From NCBI GenBank assembly GCA_964234715.1, contig OZ174279.1: a stretch of 64,000 nucleotides of DNA. One strand, 5' to 3'. Shown one piece after another: positions 29,105-54,894 of this stretch. The translations under genes were made by a program, and so were the position numbers. The notes under the pieces were generated by a model that was not told the DNA's origin, did no database searches, and saw only the letters and a program-made list of their open reading frames with translations. Each line of letters starts with the position of its first letter. Within the stretch, counting starts at the first letter, position 1. The stretch comes from Podarcis melisellensis (taxonomy: Eukaryota).

Positions 29105-29397
29105 GAACAGAGCAGGAACAAATCTTGCAGCATCAGTGCAGCAACTCATCCTGGTAGATCTTGCCCTTGTGAGGTAGTTGTGGAGACCTTGCCACAGTTG
29201 TCTAAGTCTCCTCCTCTCCCAAGCCTTTCCCAAGCAATCGGAGACTCTGCCACCATACCCTTTGCTCCACCATCTTCATACCTCTTCTAGTTCTGGGAGA
29301 CCAGCGGGGAGGGGAGGGGGTCACAGCAGGACAGGATGACACTTTGGCTTCTTCACTAGCCTGAATCATCTCTGCCTCTTGTCTCCCCACCTCTAGT
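29105..29397 (-). mobile_element. Probable LTR fragment
   Basis: ORF 29202-29390 shares a peptide motif with the ORF in the TSD-flanked LTR at 49686-50107; termini not visible. Confidence 0.5.
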
Positions 29398-38340: not shown

Positions 38341-38828
38341 TTGTTGTTGTTTAGTCGTGTCCAATTCTTCGTGACCCCATGGACCAGAGCACGCCAGGCC
38401 CTCCTGTTTTCCACTGCCTCCCGCAGTTTGGTCAAACTCATGCTGGTAGCTTCAAGAACACTATCCAACCATCTCGTCCTCTGTCGTCCCCTTCTCCTTG
38501 TGCCCTCCATCTTTCCCAACATCAGGGTCTTTTCCAGGGAGTCTTCTCTTCTTATGAGGTGGCCAAAGTATTGGAGCCTCAGCTTCAGGATCTGTCCTTC
38601 CAGTGAGCACTCAGGGCTGATTTCCTTCAGAATGGATAGGTTTTATCTTCTTGCAGTCCACAGGACTCTCAAGAGTCTCCTTCAGCACCATAATTCAAAA
38701 GCATCAATTCTTTGGCGGTCAGCCTTCTTGATGGTCCAGCTCTCACTTCCATACATCACTACTGGGAAAACCATAGCTTTAACTATACGGACCTTTGTCG
38801 GCAAGGTGAGGTCTCTATTTTTTAAGGT
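38341..38828 (-). mobile_element. BovB (RTE) LINE 3' fragment
   Basis: MLGKMEGTRRRGRQRTRWLDSV...WRALVHGVTK; (CAA)n tail; TSD gctgtggg. Confidence 0.95.
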
Positions 38829-48358: not shown

Positions 48359-48961
48359 TATGTACAATTTAGGGGTGGCTAGCTGGAAGTTATTTTACCT
48401 TTTATCTATTTCTTTCTTATTTCCTTTTTATTTCTTTATTCCTTTCTTTAATATTCTCTCTTATGATATTTTGATAAGAACTGCATGTAGATGGAGATGA
48501 TGAACCCTGTGTGAGAGGCAGGGAAGGGGAAATCTCCCAGAGTGAGAGGCTGGGAGAAGAGGGAAATGGTCCCAGGTGAGAGGTGGGAGGATGCATCCTT
48601 CTCTGTATGGGATAAAAATTCAGATATATCTGTGAGAGAGGACATTGTATTCGGTGAGCTGGCCCTTTAAGGAGTCGAACTCTTCAAGTTTGGGAGGGGT
48701 AGACCAGATATAACTGTTCTTCCATTTCCTCAGATGTCATTGGACTACAGCTCCCATCATCCCTGACCATTGGCTAAACTGGCTGGGTTACAAGCATACA
48801 TTACTCCAGTCAGAACAAAAATGTAGCCAAATAAATTTTGCTTAAAACACAATCTAGCTTTCCCTATCTAGACATTGCCCCTAACCCTAACAATTTAGGT
48901 CCAGTTTGCAGAATCTTACACCCTCCAACTTGGCATGCTATTTGCTTGTCTGTATCCTGAG

Positions 48962-49378
48962 TATGGAAGTGAGAGCTGGATCATAAAGAAAGCTGATCGC
49001 CAAAGAATTGATGCTTTTGAATTATGGTGCTGGAGGAGACTCTTGAGAGTCCCATCGACTGCAAGAAGATCAAACGTATCCATTCTCAAGGAAATCAGCC
49101 CTGAGTGCTCACTGGAAGGACAGATCCTGAAGCTGAGACTCAAATGCTTTGGCCACCTCATGAGAAGAGAAAACTCCCGGGAAAAGCCCCTGATGTTGGG
49201 AAAGATGGAGGGTGCAAGGAGAAGGGGACGACAAAGGACGAGATGGTTGGATAGTGTTCTCGAAGCTACCAGCATGAGTTTGACCAAACTGTGGGAGGCA
49301 GTGGAAGACAGGAGTGCCTGGCGTGCTCTGGTCCATGGGGTCACAAAGAGTCGGACATGAAATGACTAAACAACAACA
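48962..49378 (+). mobile_element. BovB LINE 3' fragment
   Basis: YGSESWIIKKADRQRIDAFELWCWRRLLRVP...; (CAA)n tail; perfect TSD atcctgag. Confidence 0.95.
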
Positions 49379-49685
49379 ATCCTGAGACCACACCTTCATC
49401 CACTCATCTGGTTGGTAATCTTCCCTCTCAGCAGTGCCACTCCCAGTCCACAAATTCAAGCAAGCTAGATTGTTTTCTCTCTCAACAGCTGACATGTCTA
49501 CATGTGATCCTGCATCTTCCTCAATGATTTTACCAGCTTCCAATTTGATCACTAGACCAGAAAGTTCTAGCAAGTTAAACTCAAAACCCCCAATGTATGT
49601 GCAAAAGTTATAGTTTTTGTACTAGCAGAACAGTTCATTTCTTTCGCATTAGTGATGAAAACACTAGGGGAGGTGGCAATGATAC

Positions 49686-50107
49686 TGTAAGGAGGGGTTG
49701 GTTAGCCCTTCGCAATAAATCCCTCGGCTTGACCAGAGTTGTATTTACAGTCTTTTATTTGTACAATATTTACAAAGTACAGAGCATCTCTTCAAGCATC
49801 CGAGTCGTCCGTAACAGATCCCGGGAGTGGGGGCTTCCTGCTCTGCCTCCCGCAAAGCGGCCTGGGCAATCCCAGATGTCGGCGTTGTTCTCTACACTTT
49901 AACCCCCTCCTGTCCTGTGTGGACAGAACTGGTGCCCCCTCACCCTCTGTGCTGAAGCTGGTGAAGTCGTGCTGTCGCTTTCTAACCTCATGGAGGTGTG
50001 CCTCCGCCTCCCCTTGCTCTCCACCCCCTTCCAGTGCTGCCTCTTCTACTGGCCCCTCTCTCTCCCCGTCCTCCAACTCTGGAGCCGTCCCAGCTGGCTC
50101 CATGACA
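49686..50107 (-). mobile_element. Solo LTR (Gypsy-like)
   Basis: Minus strand TGTCA...TTACA termini, AATAAA at ~49754-49759, perfect 5-bp TSD gatac. Confidence 0.85.
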
Positions 50108-50507
50108 GATACTAAACTCTTTCACATGGCCCCACCCCTCACATGTTAACTCCTTTTCCAAACACCTGAAGAGGGCTCTTGTTACATGCAAATGTGTGTA
50201 ATTGTAGCCTGATAGGAACTTAAAATGGAGGGACCCCTGCTTTTCTCACATTTCAAATTAAGAACACGTGAAGATCCTTGCCAGATCAGGCCAAGACATA
50301 TCTAGTCCTGCACTCTGTTCTCACAGTGGCCAACCAGATGCTCAGATTGCTTCTTCAAATGGACTCACAGTGGGTATTTTTAATGTGGGAAAGCACACAA
50401 AGGAGGGAGAAGCTGCTTGGGGAAACTATGTGGAATGTGGTTATTGACAGGCTGCTCCTGACAGATGCCGGATGTGGTAGAACCAGTGTTGAAGTCAACC
50501 CCATGCC

Positions 50508-53315: not shown

Positions 53316-54644
53316 CATAGAATCATAGAGTTGGAAGAGACCACAAGGGCCATTGAGTCCAACCCCCTGCCAAGCAGGAAACACCATCAGAGCACTCCTG
53401 ACATATGGTTGTCAAGCCTCTGCTTAAAGACCTCCAAAGAAGGAGACTCCACCACACTCCTTGGCAGCAAGTTCCACTGTCAAACAGCTCTTACTGTCAG
53501 GAAGTTCTTCCTAATGTTTAGGTGGAATCTTCTTTCTTGTAGTTGCTCCGTGTCCGCTTCTCTGGAGCAGCAGAAAACAACCTTTCTCCCTCCTCTATCT
53601 GACATCCTTTTATATATTTGAACATGGCTATCATATCACCCCTTAACCTCCTCTTCTCCAGGCTAAACATGCCCAGCTCCCTTAACCGTTCCTCATAAGG
53701 CATCGTTTCCAGGCCTTTGACCATTTTGGTTGCCATCCTCTGGACACGTTCCAGTTTGTCAGTGTCCTTCTTGAACTGTGGTGCCCAGAACTGGACACAG
53801 TACTCCAGGTGAGGTCTGACCAGAGCAGAATACAGTGCCACTATTACTTCCCTTGATCTAGATGCTATACTCCTATTGATGCAGCCCAGAATTGCATTGG
53901 CTTTTTTAGCTGCCGCGTCACACTGTTGGCTCATGTCAAGTCTGTGGTAAACCAAGACTCCTAGATCCTTTTCACATGTACAGCTCTCAAGCCAGGTATC
54001 ACCCATCTTGTATTTGTGCCTCTCATTTTTTTTGCCCAAGTGCAATACTTTACATTTCTCCCTGTTAAAATTCATCTTGTTTGTTTTGGCCCAGTTCTCT
54101 AATCTGTCAAGGTCGTTTTGAAGTGTGATCCTGTCCTCTGGGGTGTTAGCCACCCCTCCCAGTTTGGTGTCATCTGCAAATTTGATCAGGATGCCCTCGA
54201 GTCCATCATCCAAGTCGTTGATAAAGATGTTGAATAAGACCGGGCCCAAGACAGAACCCTGTGGCACCCCACTAGTCACTCTTCTCCAGGATGAAGAGGA
54301 ACCATTGATGAGCACCCTTTGGGTTCGGTCAGTCAGCCAGTTACAAATCCACTGAGTGGTAGCATAGTCAAGACCGCATTTTACCAGCTTCTTTACAAGA
54401 ATATCATGGGGCACCTTGTCAAATGCCTTGCTGAGATCAAGATAGGCTACATCCACTGCATTCCCTTCATCTACCAGGGTTGTAATTCTGTCAAAAAACG
54501 AGATCAGGTTAGTCTGACCTGACTTATTTTTCAGAAATCCATGCTGACTATTGGTGATCACAGCATTCCTTTTTAGGTGCTCACAGACTGTTTGCTTAAT
54601 GATCTGCTCCAGAATCTTCCCTGGTATTGATGTCAGACTGACTG
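53316..54644 (-). mobile_element. CR1 LINE, 5'-truncated (RT domain plus 3' UTR)
   Basis: ORF 53518-54654 with [20 protein letters not shown] and KFADDTKL; (ATTCTATG)n tail. Confidence 0.97.
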
Positions 54645-54894
54645 TACTGAACATTCACTTGATGCTAAATTAATTCACTGACCTTGCTACAGGTGCTAAT
54701 GAGAAGTCTGACGACATGCAGAGTCCTGACTCATGGAAGATGCATGATTGACCATACAGAGGATTGCAAGGGGCTCATTTGTGCCATTATAAAAGTAGGA
54801 AAGCAGGAGCCAACAGAGCGTAAATACAGGAAGTCAGCAGAATTTATGCTAAGCTGATGTAAGTTATCCCTATTCCACAATCCATTCGGGGGCA

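Follow-up and report, generated by a model that had tools for sequence, protein, structure and literature searches.

A lizard Ty3/Gypsy chromovirus solo LTR and the probable relic of an LTR-encoded integrase tail within it

The window analyzed here is a stretch of 64,000 nucleotides of Podarcis melisellensis DNA (contig OZ174279.1), the minus strand of which carries a solo LTR enclosing an open frame of 103 codons. The features discussed below are as follows.

49686..50107, minus strand: solo LTR of a Ty3/Gypsy chromovirus (family A), 422 nt, recognized from its termini, target duplication and genome matches
50108..50112, minus strand: target-site duplication, upstream copy, 5 bp
49681..49685, minus strand: target-site duplication, downstream copy, 5 bp
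49792..50103, minus strand: 103-codon frame, very probably the relic of an LTR-encoded C-terminal Pol/integrase tail; the homologous frame is continuous with the integrase-chromodomain in L133, L154, L072/L138 and the protein P0013
49960..50103, minus strand: acidic, length-variable codons 1-48, a likely linker, with no codon-position bias and a less certain alignment
49795..49959, minus strand: conserved basic half, codons 49-103, with a basic stretch, a Cys-Trp-basic motif (in the family) and a short acidic end
49882..49923, minus strand: 14-codon motif singled out in the first-pass annotation, residues 61-74
49754..49759, minus strand: AATAAA, a putative polyadenylation signal of the LTR, proposed from its sequence
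29139..29388, minus strand: 5'-truncated fragment of a second LTR family (B); it has a conserved frame of its own, with the motif at 29259-29300

The LTR ends are TGT...ACA, GTATC stands on both flanks, and an ATG at LTR nt 5 opens the frame at 50103-49792, which encodes 103 aa. Residues 1 to 56 include 16 D/E and 4 K/R, and residues 57 to 95 include 2 D/E and 10 K/R. These observations agree with the first-pass annotation, which had described an ATG-led frame with an acidic N-terminal and a basic C-terminal half in a solo LTR flanked by target-site duplications. Taken alone, the openness of the window frame is no better than chance, a frame of this length being stop free in 1,467 of 20,000 Markov resamples. 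Pfam recognized no domain in the tail, an ESM Atlas search gave nothing (best 0.78), and none of 599 candidates proved to be a longer protein containing the window frame. Elsewhere in the window are a 378-aa reverse transcriptase-like frame (53518-54654, minus strand), which we take to be of the CR1 type, and RTE/Bov-B-like fragments at 38355-38754 and 48961-49360, which form a 400-nt inverted pair (93%).

The window LTR has 39 matches at 67 to 100% identity in the 1.57-Gb genome. With its C-terminal 52 codons as the query, the best 150 of 7,496 candidates were scored and 91 distinct copies were extracted; with one duplicate removed, 90 were clustered, and 80 of these lie within the seven subfamilies used. 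On the LTR side, the TG...CA termini and short target duplication are those of Ty3/Gypsy chromoviruses, and the RT-RH-IN order with a C-terminal chromodomain is found in elements with homologous LTRs, the window copy itself being devoid of an interior. Pfam recovers IN, SH3 and chromodomain in L133 and RNase H, IN, SH3 and chromodomain in L138, and L135 shows matches from gag to integrase. The window LTR belongs to a lizard Ty3/Gypsy chromovirus clade, the tree of which was built from the SH3-chromodomain region without named references. Two LTR pieces on C9 were considered as a single element and rejected, as they represent a local duplication. Most of the pol-linked copies of the window's clade are carried by C19, many of them near-identical, as expected of a nonrecombining, possibly sex, chromosome.

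Of 28 family A copies found by DNA search, 13 are located no more than 5 Mb from a chromosome end, where 12% would be expected, in a count that left out C14, C18-C20 and the small contigs and took one duplicated pair twice. No comparable excess is seen in family B (11/133) or in a separate young family described below (13/87). The bias fits targeting and differential retention alike. The pol-linked relatives of family A lie within 5 Mb of chromosome ends in 12 of 17 cases, and family A and its relatives cluster at opposite ends on C1, C4 and C9 and at the same end on C11 and C15. The centromeric end could not be identified from the chromosome-end sequences. On C1, C2, C3, C4 and C9, one end has degenerate telomeric arrays with a 72 to 74% match (L278, L279, L282, L283 and L291), some with periods of 83 to 131 bp, and the arrays at the other chromosome end are cleaner.

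The coding context of the window frame emerges from sister subfamilies in which pol is preserved next to the LTR. In L133, whose LTR is among the closest pol-linked relatives of the window LTR (62% identity over 381 nt, E=1e-20), a single frame of 665 codons encodes an integrase zinc finger, core, SH3 and chromodomain by Pfam; the frame then crosses the purine tract and continues for 103 codons inside the LTR, ending in a peptide homologous to that of the window. L154 and L072/L138 share this layout. In L072, the only true junction among nine places returned by a purine-tract pattern search, the integrase, chromodomain and an acidic linker lead in frame over the purine tract into an LTR peptide resembling the window's. 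A query with the chromodomain region of L133 gave at least 150 matches, from which 30 loci were fetched. A recognizable junction is present in 16, in phase in 14 and shifted in 2; in the other 14 loci, some of them truncated or interrupted, our search expression recognized no junction. Eleven of the 14 in-phase junctions extend at least 95 codons into the LTR, and four of these 11 shift frame within the tail. A frame shift inside the tail is common to four neighboring copies on C11 (L161, L163, L165 and L166) and could reflect either local duplication or the spread of a tail-altered lineage. Thus, the continuation of pol past the purine tract into the 3' LTR, which the first-pass annotation had put forward as a check, was indeed found in sister subfamilies.

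No pol-linked copy of the window's own subfamily was found, all examinable copies being solo or truncated, and a pattern specific to it retrieved one place without pol upstream; hence, read-through there is inferred from sisters at about 62% identity. At the protein level, we built a search profile from 36 natural tails (alignment A1), for which structure prediction gave no confident fold (pTM 0.11). Against 1.84 billion proteins, this profile found five, the best of which, P0013 (E=2.4e-13), comes from another data set and comprises an SH3, a chromodomain, a linker and the tail; the remaining four are three short tail-only products and one unrelated RCC1 protein. In L173, an LTR frame of 182 codons contains internally the start of a shorter LTR family, suggesting that the LTR boundary has moved along the tail.

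Two forms of a coding U3 had been envisaged for this locus, namely, a read-through tail of Pol/integrase and a separate LTR gene. The former finds its counterpart in the sister elements described above, and the latter fares poorly. Both MMTV sag and HIV nef have coding sequence that overlaps the U3 of the 3' LTR; the lizard frame shares this overlap but is continuous with pol and lacks a conserved start codon, unlike these genes, which are separate and have their own RNAs. A comparable gene expressed from the nt-5 ATG via a subgenomic RNA, perhaps besides read-through, would account for the presence of this ATG in 14 of 15 copies of subfamily A4, in family B and in the young family. Yet the ATG is found in just 6 of the 24 copies of the two nearest groups, in 1 of 7 copies of A5 and in none of 5 of D1, although the peptide is conserved in all of these subfamilies, and the pol-linked copies have no stop between the integrase and the ATG. 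Most of the remaining copies in the nearest groups have ACG or ACA at this site, making CpG decay the likely source, and among the five closest copies ATG is confined to the window copy. Further, the triplet falls inside the terminal inverted repeat, and among 26 copies whose target duplication is perfect, 15 have a right LTR end that reads TGTGATG on the opposite strand; the terminal inverted repeats of plant CRM elements also take the TGATG/CATCA form, according to the account given in PMC3059260. Given how few of the nearest copies have it, the ATG of the window frame is incidental, and we consider an independent LTR gene improbable.

Still less probable is domestication of the solo LTR by the host, whereby a host transcript from upstream would give rise to a 103-aa microprotein. 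The window copy does have an open, ATG-led frame, and the insertion is common to two other organisms in public data, in which contigs cross the insertion junctions; however, the substitutions run against constraint on this copy. The codons unique to it include 11 nonsynonymous and 6 synonymous changes, and the differences listed relative to one orthologous contig of another organism include at least 9 nonsynonymous and at least 3 synonymous, near a neutral ratio of nonsynonymous to synonymous sites of about 2.6. It also departs from nearly invariant positions of the family. Contigs presumed to be RNA derived contain parts of the LTR only and probably come from other copies. The window copy has therefore drifted about neutrally, without a sign of constraint of its own, as far as these small numbers go, and this drift, together with the rarity of the ATG, leaves the stand-alone microprotein that had been proposed for this LTR unsupported.

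Selection becomes apparent when subfamilies, rather than individual copies, are compared. Collecting copies across the genome and computing dN/dS over the frame, as had been proposed, gave values of 0.10 to 0.27 between subfamilies for codons 49 to 103, versus 1.4 to 2.0 for the other two sense frames pooled; the subfamily pairs are not independent, and the copies retrieved by protein search are biased toward open frames. In these codons, 90 of 213 third-position sites differ between subfamilies, versus 32 of 218 and 26 of 218 sites at the other two positions (p=3e-12), and this bias is absent both after the stop (p=0.12) and in codons 2 to 48 (p=0.28). Private variants of single copies comprise 79 synonymous changes, 155 nonsynonymous changes and 12 stops, compared with 111:98 between subfamilies, and the contrast between private variants and the nearest subfamily pair has p=0.006. 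The 24 copies found by DNA search contain 7 stops in 1,303 codons in frame versus 30 and 29 in the shifted frames. Omega values from codon models on trees, in which neutral tips are included, were 0.42 (23 DNA-found copies) and 0.50 (66 copies); the shifted frames gave 1.2 to 1.5, the acidic half 0.74 to 0.99 and the region beyond the stop about 1.0. Only 26 of 61 copies preserve the phase between the LTR start and the motif (p=0.08). These results support purifying selection on codons 49 to 103 between subfamilies, and changes after insertion and in the acidic half look near neutral. Hence, the protein-level selection on U3 that had been put forward holds for the basic half and fails for codons 2 to 48, where no clear codon signal was found.

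The antisense frame that shares third positions mirrors this signal (dN/dS of 0.21 to 0.27, few stops), so that continuity with pol is the sole criterion for the coding strand. The notion that the conservation reflects DNA or RNA signals such as promoters or structure, or the antisense frame, with no sense peptide at all, is barely credible: U3 must contain promoter elements, and in the DNA-found copies the shadow frame matches the sense frame in openness (6 stops in 1,281 codons), but a three-base periodicity that ends at the stop codon is unexpected of a DNA signal, the shadow frame has twice the stops over 66 copies (39 versus 19), and the frame joined to pol is the sense frame.

The 14-codon motif was originally noted for its match to a frame at the other end of the window, in a piece of the second LTR family. 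The match is as first described, with 8 identical residues, 6 of them specified by different codons, and 19 of 42 nucleotides identical; the accompanying caution that so short a match could be due to chance was well placed, since 52 of 5,000 shuffles equaled or exceeded its local alignment score of 40, which is also surpassed by two unrelated window frames (44 and 42). Family B is abundant (40 scored of 2,073 candidates), and a single frame is preserved in its copies from LTR nt 2 onward. A profile-profile comparison of A and B aligns exactly the noted motif, with E=7e-4 (3e-4 with a wider set) and a probability of 26 to 39%, and yields nothing in shifted frames; the best match of the A-type profile falls on the motif in 41 of 59 B loci under a loose expression. 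L233 carries a B-like LTR downstream of an integrase-chromodomain; in the tree, this integrase-chromodomain clusters with those of the A-type elements (support 99/98) and separately from the young family. Taken together, homology of the A and B motifs appears likely, though short of proof. A family B pattern gave 11 matches with one pol-linked copy, this same L233, which is frame-shifted and diverged. The selection signal of B falls short of that of A: variants common to at least four B copies number 11.9 nonsynonymous to 10.6 synonymous, but stops are fewer in the +2 frame. Neither the A nor the B tail gave a significant match to the tail of the young family in profile comparisons.

This separate young family provides complete elements, with LTR pairs that are 99.7 to 100% identical and single frames of 1,575 to 1,625 codons terminating some 117 codons into the 3' LTR; its members include L139:707-5581 (minus strand), L142 and L075-L102. 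The junction is in phase in 19 of 28 copies, 17 of which reach the family stop, and the 9 shifted copies differ in the length of a G run, each having an in-phase nearest neighbor (one tied). Its tail is weakly constrained, with pairwise dN/dS of 0.4 to 0.7 versus 0.07 to 0.26 in the alignable integrase and chromodomain parts, and ends in an exact HMGN-type RRSARL. The UniRef entry P0001 from Podarcis muralis, named "Gypsy retrotransposon integrase-like protein 1," shares 95% identity with the C-terminal 196 aa of this family, tail included, and is unmarked as LTR encoded. At L014:14-686, a young-family LTR has inserted within a family A LTR without a change of frame, and the two form a hybrid open frame of 224 codons.

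On the basis of these observations, we regard the window frame as very probably what remains of the final ~100 codons of a chromovirus Gag-Pol/integrase. Pol would have run in frame from the chromodomain over the purine tract into the 3' LTR, as seen in the sister subfamilies, so that U3 served there, and presumably in the window's subfamily, as both LTR DNA and coding sequence. Purifying selection preserved the basic half as long as the elements were active; LTR-LTR recombination would then have removed the interior and left a copy without its upstream frame, which seems to have drifted about neutrally since. The feature is real, and the locus itself is a fossil.

Precedents for parts of this arrangement exist. 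In plant CRM chromoviruses, an LTR-encoded CR motif is tied to centromere targeting according to PMC3059260, PMC3605345 and PMC6317226, and Pol of CRM group A likewise runs into the 3' LTR. The CRM motif (CHDCR) stands in place of a chromodomain, and its gain is linked to chromodomain loss in PMC6317226, whereas in the lizard elements a chromodomain recognized by Pfam is retained ahead of the purine tract and the tail comes in addition. In their Gag-PR-RT-RH-IN-SH3-chromodomain order, single frame and lack of an env match, they resemble the vertebrate Tf1/Sushi V-clade as tabulated in PMC6317226. In an amphibian relative, P0002, the sequence that follows the chromodomain is different. Hence, the entry of pol into the 3' LTR is already known from plant chromoviruses, and one lizard tail (P0001) is already present in automatic annotation. 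In literature on chromoviruses, squamate Gypsy elements, acidic-patch binding and Metaviridae, covered mostly as titles and the beginnings of abstracts, we found no selected LTR-encoded tail beside a retained vertebrate chromodomain.

As to function, the tail would stay on the integrase, with the acidic part as a flexible spacer and the basic part as a linear motif. By analogy, we give about even chances to a disordered acidic spacer plus an arginine-rich motif that aids nuclear entry or the hold on chromatin beside the chromodomain. HMGN, Dsup and several viral proteins place such arginines on the H2A-H2B acidic patch, and foamy virus Gag, LANA and IE1 are tethered to it by arginines, as stated in PMC12487698 and PMC9040877. 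The RRSAR(L) core is exact in the young family, family B has an R-x-S-L-R-L-like stretch, and the window's family lacks the core and has a looser stretch of the W-R-R-S-R-K type; a basic motif of six residues could also be convergent or an NLS. A distant unnamed chromodomain-bearing Pol, P0010, has RRSARL just after its chromodomain, which suggests recurrence of the motif. In many tails, among them those of L172, L176, L233, family B and P0014-P0016 but not of the window's subfamily, Ser/Thr-Pro directly precedes the basic stretch, a CDK-site-like pattern. A complex prediction for the family A tail with H2A-H2B, in which the alignment was not used, scored 0.01.

A bolder and rather doubtful proposal is that these elements have a two-part grip on chromatin, in which a histone-mark-reading chromodomain and an LTR-encoded arginine anchor on the acidic patch would together set the integration sites of each family, as a vertebrate counterpart of the CR motif. 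The anchor might take the form of RRSARL in one lineage and of a basic-helix/Cys-Trp motif in that of the window, and, being located in U3, the peptide would be swapped with the LTR. If correct, this would explain the bias of family A toward chromosome ends.

A fossil protein frame of this kind is present in thousands of lizard solo LTRs, and ATG-led "micro-ORFs" are accordingly the expected by-products of such fossils and not new genes. The findings point to a selected integrase tail of ~100 residues that overlaps the promoter region in vertebrate chromoviruses already equipped with a chromodomain. Provided that it binds nucleosomes, this tail would constitute a second targeting module and extend acidic-patch tethering from viruses to retrotransposons, a proposition testable with short peptides.
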